The notes under the pieces were generated by a model. The model was not told the DNA's origin, ran no database searches, and saw only the letters and a program-made list of their open reading frames with translations. This document shows positions 1 to 23,613 of a stretch of 30,253 nucleotides of DNA, in pieces (the stretch's first letter is position 1; each line of letters opens with the position of its first letter). The translations under genes were made by a program, and so were the position numbers. The DNA lies in the NCBI GenBank assembly GCA_016199265.1, contig JACQGX010000284.1, positions 1 through 30,253 on the forward strand, written 5' to 3'. Source of the DNA: Chloroflexota bacterium (GTDB taxonomy: Bacteria; Chloroflexota; UBA11872; UBA12225).

Positions 1-119
1 GCGCGTGGCGTCGGACCCAAGCCGCCGGTGTTGAGGTACGTCGAATGCGCCAGCGCCGGCAACTCGGCGCGGATGGCATCGAGATCTATCGTGCTCGTTG
101 CGTCGGCGGTGTTCGTCAT
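1..119 (-). CDS. Partial gene; only the N-terminus is in the window and the gene runs off the 5' edge. Translation MTNTADATSTIDLDAIRAELPALAHSTYLNTGGLGPTPR resembles the N-terminus of class-V aminotransferase-fold PLP enzymes (YLNxGxxGPxP).
   Basis: Reverse-complement translation of 1-119 is open from an ATG at ~117-119 with TGGAG about 9 nt upstream. The YLNTGGLGP motif is typical of cysteine desulfurase/aminotransferase class V N-termini. Not in the ORF track because it is under 60 aa in-window. Confidence 0.35.
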   Translation of the reverse strand, partial: MTNTADATSTIDLDAIRAELPALAHSTYLNTGGLGPTPR

Positions 120-136
120 TTAGGTGCTCCAGTTTT

Positions 137-240
137 GGACGAAGGACGAAGGACGAAGCAGGTGGTCTGTGGACCATTACTTCGTGGCTTGTCTGCTTGG
201 TCGTTCGTCTGCTTCGTCCTTCGTCCTTCTTCTGCTTCGC
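137..240. repeat. GGACGAA-heptamer palindromic element. Left arm (GGACGAA)x3-GCAG, right arm CTGC-(TTCGTCC)x2-TTC, about 45-nt loop. Intergenic.
   Basis: Arms at 137-161 and 209-229 are reverse complements. Sits between the stop of the propeller gene (240) and the start of the partial gene at 119. Confidence 0.8.
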
Positions 241-1325
241 TATACCGTCGCAACGTACACCTGTGGATGGCCGGTGGCATCGGAGGTGTAGACGACGCGG
301 GCGCCATCGGGGCTGTAGGATGGGTGAGGGTGGGTCCACTGGGGACCATAAGCAGCCTCGGGCGTGGGGCCGTCCCAAATGGGTTCGGGTAGCGCCCACT
401 GGTAGCCCTGGCAGGAGGCACGCGGCTGGCAGAGCGTGCGGCGGGCGCCGGTGCGGGGATCGATGAGGACGAGGCCAACATCGGGCAGCGCCGTGTCGCA
501 GACGATCAGCCCTCCATCCGGGCGCGGCGCCGGGTGCCAGCAGTTGAACGCGGCGACGGCGCGGTCGCCGGTGCCGTCGCGCCGGATAGACCGGAGCGCG
601 TGCGGCCAATGGGTGTAGATGATCTCGTCGTCGTTCAGCCAGCTCTCGTGCGTGAGCCACTCGCGGCGTGTCTGGCCGCGGAGCGGGTGCGGATCGGTCC
701 CGTCGCGGTTCACCAGCCACAGACGGGGCAGATCGCTCGAGAACAAGATCTGGCGACCATTGGGGCTGAACTGCGCGTGGCCGACGAAGCGTTCGGTCTC
801 GTATGCGGTGCGGACGCCCGACCCGTCGGTGCGGATGGCGAGCAGCGCGTTGCGCCGGCCGTGCGTGCTGCTCTCGCCGCTGAACGCCGACGTGACGAGC
901 TCGGCACCGTCGGGGCTGAGGCTGCCGGTGTCGACGTGAGCATCGCCGGGGCAGACCGCGACGGTTGAGCGATACGCCGTGGCCACTTCGACGGCGCGCA
1001 GCTCGCGTCCGGCGCCGTAGAACACATGGCTGCCGTCGCGGCCGACGCACGCCGACCAGGGGTTCACCTCTCCGGTGTCGGTGAGCTGTAGCAACTCGCC
1101 CGAGGCCTCGTCGACCGCATACAGGTTGGCGCGCCCGCCGTCGCGGTACGACGTGACGATCAGACACGACTCGCCGCCGCGGCCGCGAGGGAACGCCCAC
1201 GCCTGGTTGAGGAAGTAGGGTGCGTGATTGATGCATGGCGTGTTGGTGAGCTGCACGATGGCGGTGCCGGTCTCCGGCTCGACCCACGCGCGCCGCTCGG
1301 GCGGAAAGCGATCGCCTGCGCTCAT
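240..1325 (-). CDS. Beta-propeller protein with PD40/WD40-like repeats (TolB-like / oligogalacturonate-lyase-like fold).
   Basis: 361-aa ORF with recurring SPDG/SPNG/YSPDG blade motifs and high codon-usage regularity. TAG stop at 240-242 directly abuts a palindromic repeat element. Confidence 0.6.
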   Translation of the reverse strand: MSAGDRFPPERRAWVEPETGTAIVQLTNTPCINHAPYFLNQAWAFPRGRGGESCLIVTSYRDGGRANLYAVDEASGELLQLTDTGEVNPWSACVGRDGSHVFYGAGRELRAVEVATAYRSTVAVCPGDAHVDTGSLSPDGAELVTSAFSGESSTHGRRNALLAIRTDGSGVRTAYETERFVGHAQFSPNGRQILFSSDLPRLWLVNRDGTDPHPLRGQTRREWLTHESWLNDDEIIYTHWPHALRSIRRDGTGDRAVAAFNCWHPAPRPDGGLIVCDTALPDVGLVLIDPRTGARRTLCQPRASCQGYQWALPEPIWDGPTPEAAYGPQWTHPHPSYSPDGARVVYTSDATGHPQVYVATV

Positions 1326-1469
1326 AAGTACGGTTACACCTCGGCGGACTGCTGCAGATGATACGCAAGCCGGCGTGGGGTGCGGGCAAAAGTTCCGGAG
1401 GCGTCAATGTCCTGTCGACTACCGGCAGACCGGGAGCTAACAGTGCCTCACAACCCCACCGCTCACGCT

Positions 1470-1501
1470 GAGCCTGTCGAAGGGCGCCCTTCGACAGGCT
1501 C
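1470..1501. terminator. 32-bp perfect palindrome GAGCCTGTCGAAGGGC/GCCCTTCGACAGGCTC, 35 nt downstream of the pcm stop. Probable pcm terminator hairpin, no U-tract.
   Basis: Read directly. Shares the 9-mer GCCTGTCGRAG with the terminal repeats of the 4066-4203 element. Confidence 0.45.
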
Positions 1502-1535
1502 AGGGCGAGCGGACTTCTGTGAGACGTTCCAAATG

Positions 1536-2207
1536 CTAGTCTGCCTCCGCCGAGTATCCGTACTTGCCGTAGAGCCTCACGAAGTACGCTTCCACGACTG
1601 TGCGGCGGCGGATCAACCCCTGCGGCCCCTTTTCGAACAGCACGACGTCCTCGGCACCCCCCGGCCCGATCGGCTGGACGAGCCGGCCGCCGGGAGCGAG
1701 TTGCTCCACCAGCGGCGGCGGTACCTGCGGGAACGCCGCCGCCACGACGATCGCGTCAAACGGCGCGTGCTCGGGCAGCCCCTCGGTCCCGTCGCCTACG
1801 ACCACCTCGACGTTGGCGATGTCGTGCCGGGCCAGGTTGGCCGTGGCGGCCGCGGCGATGTCCGGCCAGCGCTCGATGCTCCAGACGAACCGCGCCAGCC
1901 GGGCCAGCAGCGCCGTCTGGAAGCCGTAGCCCGTGCCCACCTCCAGCACCTGCTCCGCTCCGGTGAGCCCCAGGGCCTCAATCATCTTGGCCACCAGCGA
2001 CGGTTGGGTCGTGACCTGCCCGTGCGGGATGCGCACCGGCTGGTCGAGGGAGGCCTGCACGGCGACCTCCGGCGGGACGAACCCCGCACGCGGCACCGCG
2101 CGAAAGGCCTGCAGCACGCGCGGGTCGCGTACCCCCGCAACTATGACCGCCCTGACGAGGTCTTCCTGCCGGCTAGACAGATTGGGCCGATTGCGCCGTT
2201 CCATCAC
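1536..2207 (-). CDS. pcm: Protein-L-isoaspartate O-methyltransferase
   Basis: VLEVGTGYGFQTALLA SAM-binding motif. Overall PIMT-like sequence (GQVTTQPSLVAKMIEAL...). 223 aa. Confidence 0.9.
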   Translation of the reverse strand: MMERRNRPNLSSRQEDLVRAVIVAGVRDPRVLQAFRAVPRAGFVPPEVAVQASLDQPVRIPHGQVTTQPSLVAKMIEALGLTGAEQVLEVGTGYGFQTALLARLARFVWSIERWPDIAAAATANLARHDIANVEVVVGDGTEGLPEHAPFDAIVVAAAFPQVPPPLVEQLAPGGRLVQPIGPGGAEDVVLFEKGPQGLIRRRTVVEAYFVRLYGKYGYSAEAD

Positions 2208-2242
2208 ACCCAGTATGTAGCAACCCGCGCACCGCGCTGCAC

Positions 2243-2317
2243 TAAACCAAAGCCACAGTGGGACCCACAGGCCTCCTCACTTTGCACTTTGCACTTTGCA
2301 TTTTGCACTTGGTTTAG
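2243..2317 (-). repeat. GTGCAAA-heptamer element, copy 1 (family consensus 5'-CTAAACCAAG-(TGCAAAR)x3-4-GTGAGG-[about 20 nt variable]-GGCTTTGGTTTAG-3').
   Basis: Reverse complement is near-identical to the copies at 6737-6805 and 8674-8742. 11-nt terminal inverted repeats CTAAACCAARG. Lies between the selA-like stop and the pcm start. Confidence 0.9.
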
Positions 2318-2330
2318 CCGGCTGCTTCTC

Positions 2331-3485
2331 TCAGACCGCCGCGAGGGCCGGTTGACGCGCGGCCTGCGCCAGTACGTGCCGCAGCCGGGCCGCTACCTGT
2401 TCGGCTTCGCCGGGCTCGAGGTTGTGAGGGTTAATGGTGACCGAGTCGCGGGAGTGGGCGACGGCGATGGGTGGATCGCCATCGCGAAGCCGGGCGGCGA
2501 GCTCGGGTGCGGTGAGGCCGGCGCGTGCGGGGTCGACGGTGAGCCTGGCCTGGGGAATGGTGCGCGCGATGATGCGTTCGGCGGCGACGCCGTCGAGGCC
2601 GCGCACGGCGTCGAGGACAGTCTGCGCGCAGGCGTCCCAGTAGCGCAGGTCGGCGGCGTGGTCGCGGCTGACGTAGAGCTCGACGGCTTTGAGCAGGCCG
2701 GCTATCTCTTCCTTGCCGACCTTCATGGGACGCCCCATCGAGGCGTTCGGGTTGGTGTTTAGGCGGCAGGCTTTGATCAGCTCCGCTTTGCCGAGGATCA
2801 GGCCCGACGACTGCGGGCCGCGCAGGCCCTTGCCGCCGGAGAAGACGACGAGGTCGGCGCCGAGCTCGCTGAACGTTCGTAGATTTCCGGGCGGCGGGAG
2901 CTCGGCGGCGGCGTCGACGATCACCGGCACGCCGCGTTCGTGGGCGATCTCGACAACTTCCGCCAGACTGGTGCCGGTCGGGAAGCGCGCGTTTCCCGGC
3001 AGCTCGCCGCCGCAGAAGGTGACGGCCACGGTACGCTCTGCGATCGCGGCTCTGAATTCGTCGGGTGTGGCGCCGGCTGGGCCGCCGATGTCGACGAGCC
3101 GCGGGCCGGCATTGCGGTAGCCCTGAGCGTAGCCGGTGACATGCGTCTTCTGGATGACGATCTCGTCCTTCGCGCCCGGCCAGTCGAGGTGCGGCAGCGC
3201 CCGAATCCTCTGGGGATCGGTCCCGGCGACGCACGCGGCGGTCGAGATGGCCAGCCCGGCGGCGGCGCCGCACACCATCGCGGCGTCCTCGATGGCGGGC
3301 GAACCGAGCAACTGGGCGACCTTCCGTCCGGCCGCGCGATGGAGCTCCGGCAGCTCGACGTAATTGCCGCCCGCGCGCCGCATCACCTCGAGCACTTCGG
3401 GAGGCATGAGGCTGCCGCCGAGCCGAGTCTTCATCCCATCGGCGTTGATGACGGTTCGTAGGCCGAGCTCTTGGTACGGGTTCAT
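2331..3485 (-). CDS. SelA-like PLP-dependent enzyme (L-seryl-tRNA(Sec) selenium transferase-related family). Probable start is the internal ATG (MNPYQELG...) with GAGAGGTG RBS; the track ORF extends to 3521.
   Basis: FSGGKGLRGPQSSGLILGK resembles the SelA PLP-lysine region (SGDKLLGGPQAG). Fold-type I PLP enzyme length. Confidence 0.7.
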   Translation of the reverse strand: MNPYQELGLRTVINADGMKTRLGGSLMPPEVLEVMRRAGGNYVELPELHRAAGRKVAQLLGSPAIEDAAMVCGAAAGLAISTAACVAGTDPQRIRALPHLDWPGAKDEIVIQKTHVTGYAQGYRNAGPRLVDIGGPAGATPDEFRAAIAERTVAVTFCGGELPGNARFPTGTSLAEVVEIAHERGVPVIVDAAAELPPPGNLRTFSELGADLVVFSGGKGLRGPQSSGLILGKAELIKACRLNTNPNASMGRPMKVGKEEIAGLLKAVELYVSRDHAADLRYWDACAQTVLDAVRGLDGVAAERIIARTIPQARLTVDPARAGLTAPELAARLRDGDPPIAVAHSRDSVTINPHNLEPGEAEQVAARLRHVLAQAARQPALAAV

Positions 3486-3568
3486 AGGATCTTGCACCTC
3501 TCGTGTGTGTGCCCCCATCATAGGCGATCACAAGCGATATGGGATCCGCCCCGCCGCGTTACGGCGAC

Positions 3569-3598
3569 GCGAACGTTGAGGTTGGCGTTGAGGTTCGC
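3569..3598. promoter_or_regulatory. Direct repeat CGTTGAGGTT x2 (2-nt spacing) embedded in the inverted ends GCGAAC...GTTCGC, upstream of the lipoprotein gene. Candidate transcription-factor site.
   Basis: gcgaacgttgaggttggcgttgaggttcgc, in the divergent promoter region between the selA-like gene and gene 3604. Confidence 0.3.
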
Positions 3599-3603
3599 CC
3601 TCT

Positions 3604-4068
3604 ATGCTCGTGGCATCAGACATGGCACACTCGGTACTATCGACACGTCACGCGCTCCTGCGCCGCTTTATGGGCACGAGCGCGCTGGTATTTGCCTCGT
3701 GCGCGGCCGGCGAAGCCGCGCCCGCGCCAACGCCGACACCGGAACGGCGGCCCACGCCATCTCCGTATCAGGTTGAGGTGCGGATGCACCCCCAAGAGGC
3801 CAAGTACGGCAAGGACGAGCATGTGGTGATCCAGGCGCGCTTCACCAGGAACCGGCGCGGTGTGTCCGGGGCGCAGCTCTCGGCGACCGCGCACTACCCA
3901 GGCGGCCCGCAGACGTTTCGGTCCGAGATCACGACGTTCCCCGACGGTCGCGTCGACCTGGCGATCCCGGTAGAGCCGGCGAAGCCCGGCTCTACGGTGC
4001 CGGTGGAGGTGATCATGACCTACCGGGGCGAGGCGTACCGGGCCAAGAGCGGCTTTTCGGTGCGCTAG
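3604..4068 (+). CDS. Putative secreted lipoprotein, unknown function. Start may be the ATG at 3622.
   Basis: Signal peptide ending in lipobox LVFASC, followed by a Pro/Thr-rich linker. TAG stop at 4066-4068 is the first triplet of a palindromic element. Confidence 0.5.
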   Translation: MLVASDMAHSVLSTRHALLRRFMGTSALVFASCAAGEAAPAPTPTPERRPTPSPYQVEVRMHPQEAKYGKDEHVVIQARFTRNRRGVSGAQLSATAHYPGGPQTFRSEITTFPDGRVDLAIPVEPAKPGSTVPVEVIMTYRGEAYRAKSGFSVR

Positions 4069-4203
4069 CAGCCTGTCGGAGAGAACCATTTCGGTGAGCA
4101 ATCCGCCCTCGGGAAAGCCGTTTTGCGACGGAATGAGTACCCATTTCGCCCCACTTTCGGGGCCAAAACCGCCGGAAATGGAGCCAGGGACGTTTTCTCC
4201 GAC
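4066..4203. repeat. 137-bp palindromic element bounded by 18-20-bp terminal inverted repeats TAGCAGCCTGTCGGAGAGAA / TTCTCCGACAGGCTGCTA. A nested second inverted pair CCATTTCGG / CCGGAAATGG and internal GC hairpins. MITE-like or a structured RNA.
   Basis: The left TIR begins with the TAG stop of the lipoprotein gene. Located in the 234-nt spacer before the PRTase gene. Confidence 0.7.
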
Positions 4204-4302
4204 AGGCTGCTAGCACGCCGGTCGCGTTCGGTGGCACGGAGGCACTGCCGGCGGCACATATTCTGCCGTGACTCCGGTGGATAGACGGCATGGAGTTACG
4301 CT

Positions 4303-4995
4303 ATGAATTCGCGTTTCCGCGATCGATACGAAGCCGGCCGCGTGCTGGCCGAAGCGCTTTCGGAGTATGCCGGCCGGCAGGATGTGACCGTCCTGGCGTT
4401 GCCCCGCGGCGGCGTGCCGGTGGCCTACGAGGTGGCGCGCGCACTGCAGGCGCCGCTCGACGTCTTTTTGGTCCGCAAGCTCGGCGTACCGGGGCAGGAG
4501 GAGCTGGCGATGGGCGCCATCGCCACCGGGGGCGTCCGCGTGCTCAACGACGACGTCGTGCAGGCGCTGCGTATCCCCGATGACGTGCTCGACCGAGTCG
4601 CCGCCCGCGAGTCGCAGGAGCTGGCGCGGCGCGAGGTGGCGTATCGAGGCGACCGTCCGCTCCCGGACGTGCGCGACCGCACCGTAATCCTGGTCGACGA
4701 CGGTCTGGCGACCGGCTCGACGATGCGGGCCGCGGCCGCCGCGGTACGCCGCCTCGGACCTGCCCAGGTCGTCGTTGCCGTGCCGGTGGCATCGCGCGAC
4801 ACGTGCGAGGATTTCCGGCATGAGGTCGACAAGATCGTCTGCGCCGCGACGCCCGAGCCGTTTTTCGGTGTGGGGCTGTGGTACGAAGACTTCTCGCAAA
4901 CCACCGACGACGAGGTTCGCGACCTGCTCGCCCGCGCTGCCCGCGAGCACAAGTCGCGTGGTGAAACCGTCACGGCTGGTCGCCGAGCGGCGTAA
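4303..4995 (+). CDS. Phosphoribosyltransferase-domain protein
   Basis: PRPP-binding motif [21 protein letters not shown] 8 nt upstream of ATG. This family is commonly paired with a dienelactone hydrolase, and one follows here. Confidence 0.85.
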
Positions 4996-5149
4996 CGGTC
5001 GAGCAGAAGACTGCCCCCGCGAGCGAGTGGCCGGCGACCACAGGCCGCCGATCACCGCGGGTCACCGCGGGGCGAGGTTGGTCGTCATGTCTAAATGGCG
5101 CGCCGGCTCTGCACCAGCAGAGCGGCGGCCCAGGGAGGACAGAGCTACG

Positions 5150-5842
5150 ATGAAGGACCGTGACAATCGGACGGTAGAAGAGCACGTGGTACACGTGTCC
5201 GTAGGACCCGTGACGCTCGAAGGCAACCTGGTCGTGCCGACAGGTGCCACGGGAGTGGCGCTGTTTGCGCACGGGAGCGGCAGCGGCCGGCACAGCCCGC
5301 GCAACCGCTTTGTCGCCGAAGTGCTGCAGCGGGGCGGGCTTGGCACGCTGCTGATCGATCTCCTAACGCGCCAGGAGGAAGCGGTCGATCTGCAAACGGG
5401 ACACTTGCGGTTTGATATCGGCCTGCTCGCCGAGCGGCTCGCAGGCGCCACCGACTGGCTCAAGCAGCACCCGCAGACCCGCAACTTGACGGTCGGGTAC
5501 TTTGGGGCAAGCACCGGCGGTGGAGCGGCGCTCGTCGCCGCGGCGGAGCGGCCCGACGTGGTCGGCGCCATCGTCTCACGCGGCGGCCGGCCGGACCTGG
5601 CGGGGCCCGCGCTGGCTCGCGTGCGCGCGCCGACGCTGCTGATCGTGGGCGGCCACGACTATCCGGTCATCCACATGAATCAGGAGGCGTACGATCAGCT
5701 TCGGTGTGAGAAGAAGCTGGAGATCGTTCCCGGTGCAACGCACCTGTTTGAGGAGCCGGGCGCGCTCGAGGAAGTGGCGCGGCTGGCGCGCGATTGGTTC
5801 CAGCGGTATCTGGTGCGGGCGGAGCGCGCGCGGGCGGCGTAG
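5150..5842 (+). CDS. Dienelactone hydrolase family alpha/beta hydrolase. The true start is the internal ATG (MKDRDNRTVEE...); the track ORF 4775..5842 over-extends upstream across the PRTase gene.
   Basis: GGGAGGA RBS about 11 nt upstream of the ATG at 5150. DLH-like motifs FAHGSGSG...GYFGASTGG...GGHD. Classic PRTase+DLH gene pair. Confidence 0.85.
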   Translation: MKDRDNRTVEEHVVHVSVGPVTLEGNLVVPTGATGVALFAHGSGSGRHSPRNRFVAEVLQRGGLGTLLIDLLTRQEEAVDLQTGHLRFDIGLLAERLAGATDWLKQHPQTRNLTVGYFGASTGGGAALVAAAERPDVVGAIVSRGGRPDLAGPALARVRAPTLLIVGGHDYPVIHMNQEAYDQLRCEKKLEIVPGATHLFEEPGALEEVARLARDWFQRYLVRAERARAA

Positions 5843-5982
5843 TGGAGTGCAAGGTGCAAAGTGAGACGAGGGGCGCATGACCACCGGTCATGCGCCCCTC
5901 GTGCTTCCAAACCAAAGCCGAGGTAGGACTCACAGGCGTCCTCACTTTGCACTTTGCACTTTGCACTCTGCACTTGGTTTAG
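5843..5982. repeat. Composite of two GTGCAAA-family elements. At 5843-5905, heptamers GTGCAAGGTGCAAAGTGAG plus a perfect 17-bp hairpin ACGAGGGGCGCATGACC/GGTCATGCGCCCCTCGT. At 5906-5982, a complete minus-orientation copy.
   Basis: Starts 1 nt after the TAG stop of the dienelactone hydrolase gene. The second unit ends with (TTTGCAC)x3...CTTGGTTTAG. Confidence 0.85.
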
Positions 5983-6222
5983 CCGCTCCTGTTTGTCACT
6001 TCTCCTTGCTTTCCTTCCTCCCCCTTCACCATCGCAAAGACGGTGCCGCTGAATTGTTTCGAACTCGTCTCAATTCGCCCCTATCTCCCTGCGCCCGGCG
6101 GCGTTATAGACGCTGGAAGCACTGCACACCGGGCCGAAGTACAGGCGGTTTCAGTCTTCCGGCACTGGCGGCGCAGCCAACTCACAATCGACATACCAGA
6201 CACACGGGAGTATCAGGGGGTG

Positions 6223-6660
6223 ATGGAACAGCGGCCTACGAGGCGCACGAGAAGAGGAACCACGACCGCCGCGTCGCGGCTGGGGATTGGCCTGCTGCTG
6301 GCGCTGGCGCCGGTCACGCTCGACCGCGCGGCGGCCCCGGCTGCGCTGGCTCAGGAAGCTGAGGAAGTCGAGACTGAGGTGGTGGAAGTCCAGGAGCCGA
6401 TCGGCCTCTTCCTGGAGATCGCCGGCCTCGAGTCCGACGATCTCACCGTACCGGCGGAAGTGGAGAGCATTTGGCTCGAGGGCAGCACGCTCCCCGACGC
6501 CATCGTGAGCGTCGACGGCGAGCTCGTCCTGCCCGACGAGTACGGCATTTTCGGCGTCGAGGTGCCGCTAGAGATCGGCGCCAACGACGTCACGGTCATC
6601 GCGTCAGACGCCGACGGCAACGTCGTTGAGAAGACGATCTACGTCGTCCGCGAGGACTAA
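6223..6660 (+). CDS. Small acidic secreted protein with a probable Tat signal (RRTRRGTT...ALA). Unknown function.
   Basis: Twin-arginine motif plus a hydrophobic h-region and AxA site. The mature part is very D/E-rich. The track ORF 6043..6660 starts upstream; the start chosen here is the internal ATG after an ATCAGGGGG RBS. Confidence 0.55.
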   Translation: MEQRPTRRTRRGTTTAASRLGIGLLLALAPVTLDRAAAPAALAQEAEEVETEVVEVQEPIGLFLEIAGLESDDLTVPAEVESIWLEGSTLPDAIVSVDGELVLPDEYGIFGVEVPLEIGANDVTVIASDADGNVVEKTIYVVRED

Positions 6661-6736
6661 TCACAACAACAGTCTGTCAAGGCCCGACAGGCGAGACAGA
6701 CGAGATACGCCAGACATCACCGACCTAGCAGACACA

Positions 6737-6805
6737 CTAAACCAAGTGCAAAGTGCAAAATGCAAAGTGAGGCAGCCTGCGCGTTCCACCTTGGCTTTGG
6801 TTTAG
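6737..6805 (+). repeat. GTGCAAA-heptamer element, copy 3 (plus orientation), between the two secreted-protein genes.
   Basis: CTAAACCAAGTGCAAAGTGCAAAATGCAAAGTGAGG...CCTTGGCTTTGGTTTAG. Followed by an AC-rich spacer and the RBS of gene 6838. Confidence 0.9.
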
Positions 6806-6837
6806 ACACACCAGACACACCAGGAGGAACAAACACA

Positions 6838-7461
6838 GTGAACCGCAACCCGCTTCGCACCACCGCCAGGATGCGCGTCGTCCTCGCCGCCGGCGGCCTC
6901 GTCGCCGCCTTCACCGGCCTCGCCGCGGCACCGGCGCTCGCCGCCGATCCGCAACCGATCCACGGCCACCAGATCCATGGTACGGTCAAGTCGGTCAACA
7001 CGGGCGCCAAGTCGTTCGTCGTCGACACGTCGACGCCCGACGACGTCAAACATGGCGATGTTACCGTCCAACTGCCGAACAACCTCTCGCGGCCGGGCAA
7101 GGCCGGCCAGCACGGCCAGGGCAAGGCGAAGTCGCACCTGGCCGCGTCGATCGACGACGTCAAGGTAGGCACCCGGGTCGTCGTACAGGGCACCCTCGAA
7201 AGCGGCAAGTTCAACGCGCGGCGCGTGCACGTCCTGCCAGCGAAGGAGATCACGCACGCCGTCGGCGAGGTGCAGTCGTATACCAACGGCACACTGACGG
7301 TCAAGCTGGCCGATAACTCCACCAAGACCTTCAAGGTAACGAGCGACACCAAGTTCCATCCGGAAGGCAAGTCGGCTGCCAACCTGACGCCGCCGGGCGC
7401 CAAGGTAACCGTCGTCGCGAAGGACGGCGAGGCGAAGAACATCGTCTTCCTAGCGTCGTAA
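6838..7461 (+). CDS. Secreted repeat protein (DUF5666-like beta-strand repeats), His-rich N-terminal region. GTG start.
   Basis: AGGAGG RBS 9 nt before the GTG at 6838. Signal peptide (AAPALA). Three internal repeats of pattern TVKSVNTGAKSFVVDT / TRVVVQGTLESGKF / GTLTVKLADNSTKTFKVT. HGHQIHG and GQHGQGK His motifs. Two hairpin terminators follow. Confidence 0.6.
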   Translation: MNRNPLRTTARMRVVLAAGGLVAAFTGLAAAPALAADPQPIHGHQIHGTVKSVNTGAKSFVVDTSTPDDVKHGDVTVQLPNNLSRPGKAGQHGQGKAKSHLAASIDDVKVGTRVVVQGTLESGKFNARRVHVLPAKEITHAVGEVQSYTNGTLTVKLADNSTKTFKVTSDTKFHPEGKSAANLTPPGAKVTVVAKDGEAKNIVFLAS

Positions 7462-7462
7462 G

Positions 7463-7567
7463 CAGCGTGGCGGCCGCGGTGGAGCCGCGGCCGCCACGCT
7501 GTGCGCTCTGCGAAGGGCAGCGGGCAGACCAAGGCAACGGACAGACCGTTGCCTTCTCCGTTTCTGG
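7463..7567. terminator. Two consecutive hairpins between convergent genes. The first is CAGCGTGGCGGCCGCGG-tggag-CCGCGGCCGCCACGCTG at 7463-7501. The second is AAGGCAACGG-acaga-CCGTTGCCTT plus CTCCGTTTCTGG at 7531-7567.
   Basis: Perfect 17-bp and 10-bp stems. The second has a U-rich tail on the plus strand. Placed after the secreted-protein operon and before the 3' end of the flp gene. Confidence 0.7.
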
Positions 7568-7656
7568 AGCTTGCTGGCGCTCCTGCGGTCAGAATGACAG
7601 GGGGAGGAGGGCAATAGGACAGCGAGCTGGTCGGACTCACCGGGCGACGACGGCCC

Positions 7657-8028
7657 TCATTCGCCGCCGCGGAGCTTCTGCCACATGCTCAGCGCCGTGA
7701 CGGCACCCAGCGTGATGGCCATGAGCGCCAGCACGATCGATTCGGTGGAGAATCCGCCCCCAGCCAGCGCCCCGGCGCCTGCCCCCGGCGCTCCTACCCC
7801 ACCCGGATCGAGGGCGGCGGCCGCGGTCGCGAAGACGGCGCCGACCCGGAGTCCCAGTTGCGGCAGGATGACGACCGCGGCGACCGCCACCAACCCGACG
7901 AGTACGGCATACTCCGTCATGCCTTGCCCCTGCTCCTCACTTAGCCGGTGCAGCAAGAACCAGCTCCGGGGGCATTCGGCGCGGTTCTTGTAGGCTCGTG
8001 GGCGTACGTTGCAGCGCTGCGTATTCAT
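7657..8028 (-). CDS. flp: Flp/Fap-family type IVb pilin precursor. The real start is probably the internal TTG near 7956, giving leader MLHRLSEEQGQG.
   Basis: ...LSEEQGQG|MTEYAVLVGLVAVAAVVILPQLG matches the Flp prepilin processing motif G/xxxxEY followed by the hydrophobic helix. The mature part (about 87 aa) is longer than usual and has a second Gly/Ala-rich hydrophobic segment. Confidence 0.6.
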   Translation of the reverse strand: MNTQRCNVRPRAYKNRAECPRSWFLLHRLSEEQGQGMTEYAVLVGLVAVAAVVILPQLGLRVGAVFATAAAALDPGGVGAPGAGAGALAGGGFSTESIVLALMAITLGAVTALSMWQKLRGGE

Positions 8029-8131
8029 CGTTTCAATCCGTAACAGATCGTTTGCCTTCTCTTAGCGCACGTCGCGTGCCACCAGCACGGTCCGCAACAC
8101 ACTTGTCACACATTTCGGCGACAAAATCGGT

Positions 8132-8677
8132 ATGGACGGTGTCGTGCTCGAGCTCGTACGGATCGGACTGCGCACCGCGCACGCGCTGGCGGCGGTGCTG
8201 TGGGTCGGCGGCAGCCTATTCTTCGCGCTCGCCCTCATCCCAGCCCTGCGGCGCATCGGCGCTACCGCCGAACGGCTCGAGCTCGCGACGGCCGTTGGGC
8301 GCGAGTTCCGCCGGCTCGTGCGCGCCTCGATAGTGATCTTTCTCGTCACGGGGGCGATCCTTGCCTTCGACCGCTTGAGCCGGCCGGGCGTGCCCGCCCT
8401 CTACACGGCACTGCTCGGCGTCAAGATCGCCCTCGCGCTCTGGATGTTCTGGTTGGTGCGCGAGCGTGACGTGCCCGACCGTCCGGCGACGCTTGCCACG
8501 GCGACGGCACCTTCAGAGTCGGGCGCGGCCGCTGCATCCAGCGAAGCAAGCGCCTTGTGGCACCCGTGCATCCGGCGGCAGACGCTCCTGCTCACGCTGG
8601 GAATCGCCGTGTATCTGCTGGCGATCGTGCTCAGGGTGATCTTTGAAGCGGCGCAGGCAGCGCAGCCGCGTGTCTAA
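8132..8677 (+). CDS. CopD-family-like integral membrane protein (4 TM, short form); putative copper-handling membrane protein.
   Basis: TM1 motif RTAHALAAVLWVGGSLFF matches the CopD hallmark Hx6-7WxGG. Four predicted TM helices. TAA stop overlaps the left end of a palindromic repeat element. Confidence 0.45.
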   Translation: MDGVVLELVRIGLRTAHALAAVLWVGGSLFFALALIPALRRIGATAERLELATAVGREFRRLVRASIVIFLVTGAILAFDRLSRPGVPALYTALLGVKIALALWMFWLVRERDVPDRPATLATATAPSESGAAAASSEASALWHPCIRRQTLLLTLGIAVYLLAIVLRVIFEAAQAAQPRV

Positions 8678-8742
8678 ACCAAGTGCAAAATGCAAAGTGC
8701 AAAGTGAGGATCCCTGCGGGTCCCACTGTGGCTTTGGTTTAG
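8674..8742 (+). repeat. GTGCAAA-heptamer element, copy 4. Its first bases CTAAACC supply the TAA stop codon of the CopD-like gene.
   Basis: CTAAACCAAGTGCAAAATGCAAAGTGCAAAGTGAGGATCCCTGCGGGTCCCACTGTGGCTTTGGTTTAG. The interior is 90% identical to copy 1. Confidence 0.9.
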
Positions 8743-8754
8743 GTTTGGTTCAAG

Positions 8755-8796
8755 GTCCGAAGTCCGAAGTCCGAGGTCCAGAGTCGAGGGTCGACT
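8755..8796 (+). repeat. Tandem heptamer array (GTCCGAA)x3 decaying into GTCCAGA/GTCGAGG, immediately after copy 4.
   Basis: ggtccgaagtccgaagtccgaggtccagagtcgagggtcgac read directly. Confidence 0.8.
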
Positions 8797-8843
8797 GCTG
8801 CGTGCCGCCGCTTTGGACGGTGGACGTATGACTGTGGAACCGG

Positions 8844-10610
8844 TCAAGAGGGATCTCGGCGGATCACCCAGGCGCGATACTCGCCGAATCGGCCGGCCGG
8901 AGTGGTGCCGGCCGGGAGATGCGCCGCCACCTGCGCGTGGCGCGAGACGACAACGCCTACGGCCGGCACACCGGCCGGGCTTGGAAAACCGGTGATGCCA
9001 GGCGCCACGATAGTGGGTGCGATCAAGCGTTCGCTGTCGACGAAGTGCACCGGCGCCGCGTAGTACGCGACCTCGCGGTCGGCGGCGACGAGCTCGCCGC
9101 GCGCAGCCACCGAGCGCAGCCACGCCGCCGCCTCGAACTGGCCCGACGAGCCGTAGAAGTAGGTGGTCGACTCGACCGTCGCCGCTTGGCGCGCCGCGGC
9201 TGAGACGTTGGCGCCGAGCAACAACCCGACGGCGAGCGCTCCCGCCCGCGTTGGTCCGGCGAACCGCGCGAGCGCCAGGCAGCCGGCGGCCACCGCGAGC
9301 CAGGCGGCGAGCAGACGGAGGTCGGCGTGCCGGATGAGCGCGTCGGCGCCGGTGGCGGTGCCGGCAGCGAAACCCACCGCGATTCCGGCCGGCAGAAACC
9401 AATTGGTTTTGGCGAAGGACGAATAACGGTTGACGGAGGCTCCACCGACAGAAGCGCCAATTTCGTCCTTCGTCGTTCGGCCTTCGTTAAGAAGGCGGAT
9501 GGCGGTAGGTAAGGCCGCGTCGAGCCACCGCGCTGCCGCAACGCCCGCGACGGCGGCCGCGAGGGGGAGCACGCCGGCGTGGTACTTGGGAAACCCTGCC
9601 GCCATCTTGCTCAGGTAGACCGCCATCGTCACGGCCGTGACGAACAGCAGCGCCGCGGCCGGCTCATCGCGTCGCAGCGCCAGCGGCGCCGCGACGAGCA
9701 GGCCGACCAACAGCGGGTGCAGCCACTGCATGCTCCGCAACGCCGCGACGAGCGTACGCAGCGCCGCAAGCCCCACCCCGGCGGCCGGCCCGGTCGCCGC
9801 GTTCCCCGTCAGGCCGGCCGTGTCCAGCGCCTCGTACCAGACATCACGGAATGGCTGTACAGCGGGCAGGCCGGTGCCCCACGCCACGAGCAGCCACGAG
9901 ACCAATAACACCAGACTGCCGGCGATACACGCGACGGCGAGCCGCCGCGCTTGCGGCCGGCGCCGCTGCAGCGTCAGCCAGAGCACGAGCGCCGCGGCAA
10001 CGATGAGGGGGGTGGTGAGCTTGCACCAGAGAGCAAGGGCGAAGGCGGCGGACAGCGCGGCGCCCGACCTGAGCCGGCGCCCTCCGTCCTTCGTCCTTCG
10101 TCCTTCGTCTCTTCCGGTGCGCAGGGCGAGCCAGACGAAGGCTGCGGTGGCAGGCGCCAGGACGGTGCCGTCGATGTCGAGCAGGAGGGCGCTCTGGATG
10201 GCGTACGGCGACGTCGCCCAGAGGAGCGCCGCGAGGACGCCGGCGCGTGGGCCACCGGCGAACCGGCCGAGCGCCGCCGCGCCAGCCAGCGAGGCCAGAC
10301 CCGCCAGGACACCGAAAGCGCGCAGCGCGGCGTCACCCGCCCCGGCGACGCGCTGCCACGCCGCCAGCGCCAGCAGGTAGCCCGGCGGGTGGTAGAGCGC
10401 GTACTGCAGGCGCAGGCCGTGCTCCGGATTCCAGGGGTAGTCGGCAATGTACCCGCGGTCGTAGAGAAAACTGCCGCCCGCGATTGCCCGCGCGGCTTTG
10501 GCGAAGTCGACTTCGTCGTACGTCAGCGGGCGACCTATCTGTGACAGTGCTAGGACGAGATAGAGCGCCACCGCTGCCAGGAAGACCGCACCGGTGTAGG
10601 GGCGAAGCAT
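8844..10610 (-). CDS. GT-C fold glycosyltransferase of the ArnT / PMT (GT39/GT83) type. Polytopic membrane protein.
   Basis: About 14 hydrophobic helices. N-terminal loop motif YDEVDFAKAARAIAGG (the DE motif of ArnT/PMT_2 enzymes). Carries two in-frame insertions of GGACGAA-heptamer palindromic elements (see repeats). Confidence 0.7.
   Translation of the reverse strand: MLRPYTGAVFLAAVALYLVLALSQIGRPLTYDEVDFAKAARAIAGGSFLYDRGYIADYPWNPEHGLRLQYALYHPPGYLLALAAWQRVAGAGDAALRAFGVLAGLASLAGAAALGRFAGGPRAGVLAALLWATSPYAIQSALLLDIDGTVLAPATAAFVWLALRTGRDEGRRTKDGGRRLRSGAALSAAFALALWCKLTTPLIVAAALVLWLTLQRRRPQARRLAVACIAGSLVLLVSWLLVAWGTGLPAVQPFRDVWYEALDTAGLTGNAATGPAAGVGLAALRTLVAALRSMQWLHPLLVGLLVAAPLALRRDEPAAALLFVTAVTMAVYLSKMAAGFPKYHAGVLPLAAAVAGVAAARWLDAALPTAIRLLNEGRTTKDEIGASVGGASVNRYSSFAKTNWFLPAGIAVGFAAGTATGADALIRHADLRLLAAWLAVAAGCLALARFAGPTRAGALAVGLLLGANVSAAARQAATVESTTYFYGSSGQFEAAAWLRSVAARGELVAADREVAYYAAPVHFVDSERLIAPTIVAPGITGFPSPAGVPAVGVVVSRHAQVAAHLPAGTTPAGRFGEYRAWVIRRDPS
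9411..9492. repeat. GGACGAA-family palindromic element inserted in-frame in the glycosyltransferase gene. Encodes roughly NEGRTTKDEIGASVGGASVNRYSSFA.
   Basis: Arms GGCGAAGGACGAA ... TTCGTCCTTCGTCGTTCGGCCTTCG are inverted repeats. The 82-84-nt length preserves the reading frame of ORF 8844..10610. Confidence 0.75.
10037..10110. repeat. Second, partly degenerate GGACGAA-family element in-frame in the glycosyltransferase gene ((TCCTTCG)x3 arm with a weak GGGCGAAGGCGGCGGAC partner). Encodes ...DEGRRTKDGG....
   Basis: cctccgtccttcgtccttcgtccttcgtc at 10082-10110, with a partial inverted partner at 10037-10053. Confidence 0.6.
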
Positions 10611-19877: not shown

Positions 19878-20174
19878 ATGCCATCGGCGCAGGGACGAAC
19901 GCAGATTGTGAATCGGTTGAAGAGCGTCGACGGCCATCTGCGCGGCGTGATCAAGATGGTCGAAGAAGACGCTTACTGCATCGACGTGATCCAGCAGTTG
20001 CGCGCCGTCCAGGCCGCGATCAATAGGGTCAACGCACTGCTCTTGGCCGACCACCTCGACACGTGCGTCACGACCGCGATCCGAAGCGACGAGCCGACCG
20101 AGCGCGAGCGTGTCATCGGCGAACTGCTCCGCGTCTTCGAACACGGTGCCGATGCAGCAGGCAGCAGGCAGTAG
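19878..20174 (+). CDS. csoR: CsoR/RcnR-family copper-sensing transcriptional repressor
   Basis: [43 protein letters not shown] matches the CsoR core, including the YC...H...C metal ligands (C..., H..., C in DTC). GAGAGGGAG RBS. Located directly upstream of copA. Confidence 0.85.
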
Positions 20175-20188
20175 GCAGCAGGCAGCGG
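20154..20188 (+). repeat. Tandem heptamer array GCAGCAG GCAGCAG GCAGTAG GCAGCAG GCAGCGG spanning the csoR stop codon and the copA start region.
   Basis: Read directly. The csoR TAG stop is the TAG inside the third unit. Confidence 0.85.
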
Positions 20189-20196
20189 CACGCGAC

Positions 20197-22860
20197 ATGA
20201 AGACACTCGATCACGCGGCACAGATGAACACCGCGACGGATACGGGCCAGCGCCAGACCGGCGCGAACGGCGCCGCCGAGCGTACAGCAGTCAGCGGCAG
20301 CGCCGCGCCGCCGGCGGCCGCCGAGCTTACCTTCCCCGTCACCGGCATGACGTGCGCCTCGTGCGTCCGGCGCATCGAACGCTCGCTCTCCAAGGTCGAA
20401 GGCGTTGTCGAGGCCAACGTGAACCTCGCCACCGAGCAGGCGACGGTTCGTTACGATCCCAGCGCCCCGACGCTCGCCGAGGCGCCGCCGATGGCCGTCT
20501 TCCGCGCCGCCGTCGAGCGCGCAGGATACGGCGTCCGTGAGACCGAGCCGGCCTCGCCCGCAGCGGGGGCGGCCATGATCGAAAGCTCGGAAGCGCGCGC
20601 GGCCGCGGACGAGCGGCGTGAGACCAGGACGGTGTTGGCCAAGACCGGCCTCTCGCTTGGCGTCGCCGCGATCATCATGGGGCTGATGTTTTTGCCGGCT
20701 CGCCTGATCGGCGTGCCGGCACTGCCGTGGAGCATGGAGCTGCTCAACTGGCTGTTCTTGGTCCTGGCGACGCCGGTGCAGTTCTGGGCCGGTTGGGATT
20801 TCTACCGCGCGACGTGGGCGGCCGCGAAACACGGCGCGACGAATATGAACACGCTCGTCGCCGTCGGCACGAGCGCCGCCTACGTCTACAGCGCCTTCGC
20901 CACATTCTTTCCGCAGGTGCTGGCCGGTGCCGGGATCATGCCCGAGACGTACTTCGACAGCTCGACGATCATCGTCGGCTTGATCCTGCTCGGTCGCTAC
21001 CTCGAGCATCGCGCGCGCGGCCAGACGAGCGCCGCGATCAAGAAGCTGATCGGGCTGCAACCCAAGACGGCCCAGGTGATCCGCAACGGCGAAGAACACG
21101 ACGTGCCGGTCGAAATGGTACAGATCGAGGACATTGTCCGCGTGCGCCCGGGCGAGAAGATCCCCGTCGACGGCGTCGTGCTCGAGGGCCGCTCGGCGGT
21201 CGACGAGAGTATGCTGACCGGCGAAAGCCTGCCGGTAGAGAAGGGGCCGGGCGATCAGGTGATCGGCGCCACGCTCAACGCCACCGGTGCGTTCACGTTC
21301 CGCGCGACACGCGTCGGTACCGACACGACGCTCGCGCAGATCGTGAAGCTGGTGCAGGAGGCGCAGGGCTCCAAAGCACCGATCCAGCGCCTCGCCGACC
21401 TGATCTCGTCGTACTTCGTACCGGTCGTTCTCGTCGTGTCCGCGTTCACGTTCGGCGTCTGGTACGTTTTCGGTCCGGAGCCGCAAGTCACCTTCGCGCT
21501 CACCACCTTCATCGCCGTCCTTATCATCGCCTGCCCGTGCGCGATGGGCCTGGCGACGCCCACCGCCATCATGGTCGGCACCGGCCAGGGCGCCGAGCAC
21601 GGCATCCTCATCCGCGGCGGCGAGGCGCTCGAGCAGGCGCACAAGGTGCGCGCGATCGTCCTCGACAAGACGGGGACGCTGACGCAGGGCAAACCGGCGC
21701 TGACGGACGTCAACTCAGTCCAAAGTCCAAAGTCCAAAGTCCAAAGTAATGGGCCATCCGGCTGGGGACTGGGGACCGGGGACCGGGGACTGCTGCGCCT
21801 CGTCGCCGCTGCCGAGCGGAACTCGGAGCATCCGGTGGCGGCGGCGATTGTGGAGGGGGCGCGGGCGCGCGGCGTCGAGCTTGTGGAGGCGGAACGATTC
21901 GAGTCGGTGACGGGGCGGGGCGTGGCTGCCGTCGTCGATGGGCATTTCGTGCTCGCGGGCAACCAGGCGCTCCTGGCCGATTACAGCGTCTCACTCGACG
22001 GGCTTGAGACGCAGGTAGCGGCGCTCGCACGGGAGGGCAAGACGCCGATCTACGTCGCCGTTGACGGCGCGGCGGCGGGCGTGCTGGCGGTCGCCGATAC
22101 GCTCAAGCCGACGTCGCCGCAGGCGGTGGCGCAGCTCGAAGCGCTCGGGCTCGAGGTCTGGATGCTCACCGGCGATAACCGGGCGACCGCCGAGGCGATC
22201 GCGCGGCAGGCCGGGATCGTACCCGAGCGCGTGCTCGCCGAGGTACTGCCCGATCAGAAGGCGGCGCAGGTCAAGGCGCTCCAAGCGCGCGGCCTGCCGA
22301 CCGCCATGGTCGGCGACGGCATCAACGACGCGCCGGCGCTGGCGCAGGCCGATCTGGGGATCGCCATCGGCACGGGGACGGATGTCGCCATGGAGGCGTC
22401 CGATGTCACGCTCGTCGGCGGCGATCTGCGGGGCGTCGTCGCGGCGATCGCCCTGTCGCGCCGGACGATCGACGTCATCCGCCAGAACCTGTTCTGGGCG
22501 TTCGCCTACAACGTCCTGCTCATCCCCGTCGCGATGGGCGCGCTCTACCCGTTTTTTGGCATGCTGCTGAACCCGGGATTGGCGGCCGGCGCGATGGCGC
22601 TCTCGAGCGTGTCGGTCGTTACCAACTCGCTCCGGCTCCGTGGCTTCCGGGTGCCGGATGATCCGCGCGATATTACACACCCACCGCTCGGCGCCCGCCT
22701 GCGCGAGTGGAGCTATCTCGCCGGAATCGCGGCCATCGCGCTCGCGCTCGGCGCGGCCATCATGTGGTGGTCGGCCGGCCGCGGCCCGGCGGACCAGGGC
22801 GAGCAGCAAATGGCGACAACTCAGGCCGATTCAACGCAACACAAAGGAGGCACACAATGA
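20197..22860 (+). CDS. copA: Copper-translocating P1B-type ATPase. Track ORF starts at GTG 20110; an ATG at 20152 is also possible.
   Basis: N-terminal HMA domain [13 protein letters not shown] motif [20 protein letters not shown] phosphorylation site. GDGINDAP hinge. Contains a 26-aa in-frame heptamer-repeat insertion after [16 protein letters not shown]. Confidence 0.95.
21718..21791 (+). repeat. Two adjacent tandem heptamer arrays inside the copA coding sequence: (GTCCAAA)x4 then (GGGGACY)x4. In-frame; encodes [25 protein letters not shown].
   Basis: Located right after the [16 protein letters not shown] phosphorylation loop. The equivalent linker in characterised CopA proteins is about 15 aa shorter. 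Confidence 0.85.
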
Positions 22861-23442: not shown

Positions 23443-23443
23443 G

Positions 23444-23478
23444 GCAGTAGGCAGTAAGCAGTAGCCGGTGGGCAGTTG
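23444..23478 (+). repeat. Tandem heptamer array GCAGTAG GCAGTAA GCAGTAG CCGGTGG GCAGTTG, starting 2 nt after the cbtB-like stop codon. Same GCAGYAG family as 20154-20188.
   Basis: Read directly. Confidence 0.8.
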
Positions 23479-23613
23479 GGCGCTGTCTCGACTAGGGCGC
23501 GTACGCGCGCTTGGCGGAGGGTCAAGCGCGTGCGCCGGACGCGGCTTGTAGGCGTGTGCAGCGCCGGCTGACGCACCGGCTCAGAAGAGAAGAATTACGG
23601 AAGTGGAGGACCG

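Follow-up and report, generated by a model that had tools for sequence, protein, structure and literature searches.

Four copies of a short repeat, bounded by CTAAACC-type ends and built around a tandem array of the heptamer TGCAAAG, reside in contig JACQGX010000284.1 of a Chloroflexota bacterium (assembly GCA_016199265.1), the whole of which, 30,253 nt, was analyzed and is hereafter called the window. The repeats are probably copies of a very small, non-autonomous miniature inverted-repeat transposable element (MITE), moved by a transposase of the TA-duplicating, IS630/Tc1-like kind with a preference for CTAG. No description of the family was found. It can be placed in a known class, that of bacterial MITEs, being small and without coding capacity (62-76 nt leave no room for a gene), ending in terminal inverted repeats (TIRs), and occurring in multiple copies dispersed at unrelated loci. 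What sets it apart is that it is very small, contains a heptamer microsatellite, and seems to target CTAG/TA.

Structure of the repeats

Read in its own orientation, the element runs from C-TA-AACCRAG through an array of TGCAAAG units, located just inside the left terminus, to TGAGG, a short GC hairpin, and GCTTTGGTT-TA-G. Copy A (2242-2317) and copy B (5907-5982) lie on the minus strand, and are each 76 nt long with four heptamer units; copy C (6737-6805) and copy D (8674-8742) lie on the plus strand, and are each 69 nt long with three units. A partner or variant unit, on the plus strand at 5843-5906, has heptamers which pair with those of copy B. An earlier note on this DNA, made from the sequence alone, had listed four full copies and one variant sharing a consensus and occurring in both orientations, and direct reading and motif counts agree with it. 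The coordinates it gave are right for copies C and D, but the starts at 2243 and 5906, for copies A and B, are each one base off.

In the window CTAAACCAAG occurs seven times when one mismatch is allowed, against 0.36 expected, a number reached by none of 100 shuffled sequences. The double heptamer GTGCAAAGTGCAAA, with up to two mismatches, occurs 14 times, against 0.12 expected. A profile hidden Markov model (HMM) run over the 30 kb finds exactly the four copies, at E values of 1e-16 to 1e-22, and no further ones.

The four window copies were compared with five full copies from metagenomes. In each of the nine the framework outside the array measures exactly 49 nt and is free of indels, and copies are 62, 69 or 76 nt long according to whether they carry two, three or four TGCAAAG units, the sole source of length variation. 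The frameworks are 82-94% identical within the window, and 69-84% identical when window copies are set against those of metagenomes. The termini, CTAAACCAA and TTGGTTTAG, pair as a terminal stem of 9-10 bp in every fold, and the ends are conserved across copies, with a degenerate 3' terminus in copy B (GGTTTGG, not GGTTTAG). The outermost C-TA...TA-G is almost invariant, and the bases outside it are not conserved.

Copies outside the window

A scan of metagenomes with TGCAAARTGCAAAGTGAGG returned 61 loci. Both termini are present in six of them (L008, L016, L022, L032, L042 and L049), one terminus in three or four; at twelve loci the arrangement is different, a (GTGCAAA)n array being opposed by (TTTGCAC)n in inverted orientation, and the remainder are unrelated. 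The flanks of the metagenome copies are mutually unrelated. The copies at L032 and L049 share an identical 49-nt framework and are one base apart in the array, those at L008 and L022 are one base apart in the framework (98% identity), and in both pairs the flanks are different. Near-identical copies with different flanks are the signature of a dispersed, recently copied repeat. The earlier note had considered that the copies might be unique to the window; they are found at other loci and in other populations.

The 1,952-nt Logan contig L072 (SRR12113422), assembled independently from the same or a near-identical strain, is 99.8% identical to the window, of which it covers positions 6752-8703. 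It starts inside the array of copy C and ends inside the array of copy D, the kind of break seen where assemblers meet multicopy repeats.

Searches of other collections gave no further copies. The sequence CTAAACCAAGTGCARARTGCAAA had no match among 185,579 species-representative genomes, and in the same genomes a gapped pattern combining the two termini had six matches, all due to chance and without heptamers. No match to the family was obtained in viral contigs, and only chance matches of 19-23 nt in plasmids. An Rfam search, which the earlier note had suggested, gave no hits at gathering scores over the whole window, and none on the copies at E ≤ 1 (positions 1-9000). No matching family was found in full-text searches of the literature on bacterial heptamer repeats, STRR and MITEs; the remark of the earlier note that the combination of heptamers and TIRs is not that of a described family thus holds for Rfam and for the literature searched. 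A tRNA-derived element or a fragment of a known insertion sequence was dropped for want of a supporting match, and a CRISPR-like mini-array was set aside, the units being 7 nt long and without spacers.

Location relative to genes

Coding frames in the window were assigned from codon-position G+C and Pfam domains. Copy A is located between the TGA stop (2331-2333) of a gene for a SelA-like aminotransferase and the GTG start (2207) of a gene for a PCMT methyltransferase, both on the minus strand, and is in sense orientation to the two. The variant begins at 5843, directly behind the TAG stop (5840-5842) of a gene for a DLH-like hydrolase, and runs into copy B, which is antisense to the flanking plus-strand genes; the next gene starts at 6043. 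Copy C begins 76 nt past a stop at 6660, and ends 16 nt before an AGGAGG (6822-6827) preceding the GTG (6838) of a DUF5666 gene; it lies within a putative operon, 32 nt ahead of the next start codon. A CopD-like gene (8132-8677), the homologues of which carry the PF05425 CopD domain, takes its stop codon (TAA, 8675-8677) from bases 2-4 of copy D. This arrangement confirms three observations made in the earlier note, which had one copy supplying the TAA stop of a gene rightly labelled CopD-like, the variant adjoining the stop of a dienelactone hydrolase gene, and one copy inside an operon ahead of a ribosome-binding site.

Two of the metagenome copies could also be placed relative to genes. At L042 the TAA of the element ends a gene for an ABC permease, the BPD_transp_1 domain of which reaches residue 378 of 388. 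The copy at L049 is found between divergently transcribed amidohydrolase and metallo-beta-lactamase genes.

The CopD-like orthologues of the nearest available relatives (54-57% identity) have no element after the stop, and the element is therefore not a conserved feature of the locus. These homologues, at most 57% identical, are too divergent to provide an exact empty site.

Copies within protein genes

Intragenic copies were sought by using six-frame translations of the element as protein queries, and two proteins of Chloroflexota metagenome-assembled genomes (MAGs) were matched. An O-antigen ligase (P0168, MBI3971825.1) contains PKPRWNPQAASLCTLHFALCTWF (within ...TTPKPRWNPQAASLCTLHFALCTWFRG...), a segment which a 76-nt copy would encode in reverse frame 3 (E = 3.3e-4). 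A replication initiator A, RepA (P0169, MBI3970200.1), contains LKQVQSAKCKVQSEDTCEAHLGIGL (within ...ARLKQVQSAKCKVQSEDTCEAHLGIGLGD...), corresponding to forward frame 1 of the 76-nt form, with 20 of 25 residues matching the translation of copy B; the segment sits in a variable-length linker between two blocks conserved in the homologues. The accessions of both proteins are within ~2,900 of those of the window proteins MBI3973056 and MBI3973065, and their order suggests that P0168 and P0169 are probably from the same MAG as the window. The 69-nt form is the commonest between genes, yet the intragenic copies are both of the 76-nt form.

Proposed target sites and mode of movement

The MITE would have spread in an uncultured Chloroflexota lineage, a DDE transposase of the IS630/Tc1-mariner type acting in trans. 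IS630 itself prefers CTAG. Transposases of the IS630 family insert at TA and duplicate TA (PMC2170065), and bacterial MITEs typically feature TIRs, 5'-TA-3' termini, and reading frames which fuse in frame into genes (PMC2229807; Delihas 2007). Upon insertion at CTAG, the outer C-TA and TA-G would come from the target. The mechanism of transposition, the duplication of the target, and the family of the transposase are what we infer in this account.

CTAG is found 24 times in the window, against 90 expected, and TA 490 times, against 790 expected; several CTAG sites, such as those at 1536, 4065 and 24186, include the TAG stop of a gene. CTAG being rare at the 68% G+C of the window and often overlapping a TAG stop, an element which targets CTAG would often hit stops. 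Insertions would land at or just past gene ends for this reason and for the rarity of TA. A TAG stop would be rebuilt as TAA from the duplicated TA and the first A of the element, which is proposed as the origin of the TAA stops at copy D and in the L042 permease gene, and selection would then remove disruptive intragenic copies. The location at gene boundaries is better explained by a preference for CTAG/TA, combined with selection against disruptive insertions, than by a role in transcripts.

The intragenic copies bear on the same point. Were four nucleotides of an element of length L derived from the target, the net insertion would be L - 4 nt, and whole codons would be added by the 76-nt form only (72 nt). 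The arithmetic fits both intragenic copies, and supports the proposed derivation of 4 nt from the target.

A second, unrelated MITE-like element was noticed at 4065-4213. It is 149 bp long, has TIRs of 19 bp (GCAGCCTGTCGGAGAGAAC and its complement), and is also bounded by C-TA...TA-G, the left TAG being the stop of gene 3592-4068. Further copies of it were not found among the collected sequences. At 1459-1512, in the gap separating two genes of the minus strand, is a nearly perfect palindrome (...GAGCCTGTCGAAGGGC|GCCCTTCGACAGGCTC...) whose 27-nt arms adjoin without a spacer and whose core, GCCTGTCG[A/G]AG, is similar to the TIR of the 4065-4213 element.

Several points weigh against movement by a TA-duplicating transposase. 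No transposase is encoded in the 30-kb window, as judged by coding frames and Pfam. BLAST of all element flanks against the collected loci, run in search of an empty site, retrieved nothing beyond contig L072, which is of the same strain. With 9-10 bp the inverted repeat is short, and CTA/TAG could simply be its ends and not the target. All four window copies fall within the first 9 kb of the contig, which bears on their number genome-wide. Two cases underlie the frame argument, and both have been seen as protein sequence only; the P0169 match taken alone has an E value of 1.7, and the length of the RepA linker varies among homologues, which makes the exact boundaries of the insertion unreadable.

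The elements could instead have moved by another route, either as REP- or PATE-like repeats served by a Y1 transposase (RAYT or IS200/IS605), that is by single-strand transposition with no target duplication, or through a DDE family to which the CTA/TAG ends themselves belong. We regard this as possible but unlikely. In its favor, the repeats are extragenic, of very small length and palindromic in part, and form a subterminal hairpin close to one terminus, and the failure to recover an empty site among the collected loci suits this alternative as well. Yet their ends lack the GTAG or CGTC tag which marks most REP superfamilies (PMC3733652), and the termini are inverted repeats of each other rather than two separate subterminal hairpins. 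Adding the whole 76 nt would moreover shift the frame, whereas both intragenic proteins stay in frame, and the C-TA...TA-G boundary shared by the unrelated 4065-4213 element fits a target-derived boundary better.

Folding and possible effects on transcripts

The variant is made up by a diverged left end (TGGA followed by GTGCAAG GTGCAAA GTGAG), a perfect 17-bp hairpin (5866-5882/5886-5902), and GCTT, and folds at -38.7 kcal/mol (z -5.8). The heptamer arrays of the variant and copy B are inverted repeats of 20 nt, 95% complementary, and the segment 5838-5990 folds as one three-way structure (-89.5 kcal/mol, z = -10.2). The variant, which the earlier note had counted separately from copy B, is hence not independent of it. 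Single copies form the terminal stem and a small inner hairpin and leave the heptamers unpaired, with fold energies near those of shuffled sequence (z -0.4 to -2.9).

The earlier note had favored roles as terminators, mRNA stabilizers or attenuators. In this alternative the repeats are cis-acting transcript elements selected at gene ends, either terminators or attenuators, possibly bidirectional, or 3' stabilizing hairpins. Copies do lie behind stop codons or between co-directional genes, and in each the GC hairpin is set between the A-rich array and the T-rich GCTTTGGTTTAG, so that on either strand a T-rich tail comes behind a hairpin. A consensus scan for terminators gave a weak signal at copy D on both strands (a hairpin with CTTTGGTTTA or ACTTTGCATT behind it), and the composite of copy B and the variant is extremely stable. 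Against this, single copies barely beat shuffles, and the region holds 10 terminator-like sites, against 6.3 +/- 3.0 in shuffles. None of the 14 pairs in the RNAalifold consensus fold shows a compensatory change, which in itself speaks neither for nor against structure, the MAFFT alignment used for covariation placing the array gap wrongly inside the left terminus. The genomic settings are equally unfavorable: the L049 copy lies between divergent genes, i.e. in a 5' region, two copies are translated inside proteins, no element follows the orthologous CopD-like gene in the nearest relatives available, and copy C is inserted in a putative operon shortly before the next start codon. A selected role in transcripts is accordingly unlikely as the main explanation. 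If the repeats are a MITE, whatever the weak hairpin and the T-rich tail behind it do to transcripts would be a side effect, and an incidental effect may occur above all at the composite of copy B and the variant.

A hairpin of a different kind is located at 7463-7501, 1 nt past the TAA stop of the DUF5666 gene. It has a perfect GC-rich stem of 17 bp (CAGCGTGGCGGCCGCGG/CCGCGGCCGCCACGCTG) and a 5-nt loop, and makes a more convincing structural hairpin for a gene end than does any copy of the family taken singly.

Other heptamer arrays in the contig

The contig is rich in heptamer arrays other than those of the family, which is one well-defined, TIR-bounded member of a repeat-rich genomic background. 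Heptamer repeats are over-represented in bacteria, Chloroflexus included (PMC4692102, PMC4679880, PMC6749651). This, and the presence of GGACGAA, GTCCGAA, AGTCCAA, GGGGACY and GGCAGCA arrays in the contig, might suggest that the copies are unrelated by descent and are microsatellites arisen in place by slippage in a heptamer-rich genome, an idea made very improbable by the 49 nt of non-repeat sequence (both termini and core) which the copies have in common without indels, and by the E values at which the profile HMM recovers all of them.

At 137-232 a hairpin with a 21-bp stem (-49.7 kcal/mol, z = -7.0) is formed by a (GGACGAA)3 array and, opposite to it, (CTTCGTC)n in inverted orientation. 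The hairpin begins immediately behind the TAG stop (240-242, minus strand) of a PD40-repeat gene, and ends ~15 nt before the ribosome-binding site of the next minus-strand gene; its sole resemblance in Rfam is a sub-threshold match to a microRNA precursor. A (GTCCGAA)n array followed by GAGTCGAGGGTCGAC is located at 8747-8795, directly after copy D, and the 12-mer AGTCGAGGGTCG of this segment recurs in the heptamer insert of the copA gene at locus L073. GGACGAA-type arrays, (GACGAAG)n, are found in frame at 9462-9487 and 10078-10114 in a PMT_2 glycosyltransferase gene (8844-10610, minus strand), and encode the peptides ...GRDEGRRTKDGGRR... and ...NEGRTTKDE....

Two further arrays, in direct orientation, bracket copper genes. 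The first, (GGCAGCA/GGCAGTA)n at 20152-20190, extends over the terminal codons of a csoR-like repressor gene, its TAG stop included, immediately ahead of copA; the second, a similar GGCAGCA-type array at 23443-23479, lies ~3.3 kb downstream, after an HMA-domain gene. The copA gene itself (20197-22860, plus strand) encodes a copper P-type ATPase, the next relatives of which, ~65% identical, are in MAGs of Thermomicrobiales and other Chloroflexota. It carries at 21711-21795 an insert made up by (AGTCCAA)4 and (GGGGACY)4, bounded by CAGTCC...GGACTG and in frame after DKTGT. The distance from DKTGT to SEHP is 46 residues in the window protein and 30 in 78 of 120 homologues; many Chloroflexota CopA homologues have different insertions in the same loop. 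At locus L073 (11222-11345) the insertion likewise consists of two heptamer arrays inverted with respect to each other, one of GTCGTGA and the other of CTCACGA.

Heptamer-armed hairpins with a short spacer between the arrays and without CTAAACC termini were seen at metagenome loci including L004, L007, L019, L024, L026, L028, L044, L045, L056, L057 and L071 (2390-2490), on contigs of 48-67% G+C. The L071 array is translated as the N-terminus of the called protein P0170.

In the MITE family the heptamer microsatellite would grow and shrink by replication slippage. Gain or loss of a heptamer can restore the reading frame, because 7 leaves a remainder of 1 on division by 3. The array might thus be a functional module rather than a passive product of slippage, the frame being restored by the gain or loss of units, and the heptamer-armed class a counterpart of STRR sequences, linked to TA-targeting transposition; we consider this doubtful and advance it as a speculation. 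If true, the heptamer module would be a built-in route to survival within coding loops, also for the wider set of heptamer-armed hairpins in Chloroflexota, and heptamer repeats across phyla would be linked to TA-targeting transposition, with a counterpart of the cyanobacterial STRR in Chloroflexota.

Significance of the family

The family provides a compact, well-delimited MITE for Chloroflexota, a phylum for which the literature searched described no repeat elements of this type. The proposed targeting of CTAG/TA in a genome of high G+C content, with TAG rebuilt as TAA, offers a mechanical explanation for repeats found exactly at stops. The elements have practical consequences as well. They break short-read assemblies, as seen in the Logan contig with ends inside two copies, and they lengthen or interrupt annotated proteins in the MAG (O-antigen ligase, RepA, CopA, and the PMT_2 glycosyltransferase). 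Strains might be told apart by the number of heptamers, which varies. Should the frame arithmetic hold across the genome, the family would be a clean example of reading-frame selection acting on length variants of a transposon.

Comparison with known systems

REP elements are associated with RAYT genes. REP, BIME and REPIN sequences resemble the family in being short, extragenic, palindromic and present in high copy number. In contrast, REPs measure 20-40 bp and mostly have a GTAG or CGTC head (PMC3733652), whereas the repeats described here lack the tag, are 62-76 nt long, end in CTAAACC and GGTTTAG, and have an unpaired heptamer array. The earlier note had called the repeats REP/MITE-like; the description stands for a dispersed, MITE-like family with TIRs at gene boundaries, but not for REP.

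Heptamer arrays are known from several groups. The cyanobacterial STRR units CCCCAGT, TTGGTCA and CAACAGT occur in heterocystous cyanobacteria, and Nezha and other cyanobacterial MITEs, which may be comparable, occur in heptamer-rich genomes. In the window the Nostoc heptamer unit GGGGACY makes up the right arm of the CopA insert, (GGGGACY)4, separate from the family, and we take it to be the complement of CCCCAGT-type STRR units. The repeats of the family are not STRR sequences, the unit being GTGCAAA/TGCAAAG and the host a Chloroflexota, and GTGCAAA is not among the published heptamer units found. Simple sequence repeats with heptamer units, namely the cyanobacterial STRR/GGGGACT, the TAACTGA of Beggiatoaceae and the (GATAGRA)n of Chloroflexus (PMC4692102, PMC4679880, PMC6749651), share with the family tandem units of 7 nt, a mostly intergenic location near starts or stops, and, at times, inverted arrays. 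They are described as bare arrays, whereas here the array is one module of a TIR-bounded unit with a fixed framework of 49 nt.

RPE and the 107-bp Correia/NEMIS elements are likewise palindromic, feature open frames, and are found both in frame within protein genes and between genes (PMC2229807). Neither has a heptamer array; RPEs are 105-146 bp long and reside in Rickettsia only, and Correia elements have TIRs of 24 bp and IHF or promoter motifs. RUP, the repeat unit of pneumococcus, is short, non-coding and dispersed, and has 9-bp TIRs, 5'-TA-3' termini and TA target sites, as proposed for the family; it is thought to be mobilized by IS630-Spn1 (PMC2229807). RUP differs in length (107 bp), in host (Firmicutes), in having no internal tandem array and in having a known partner insertion sequence, and the sequences are unrelated to those of the family.

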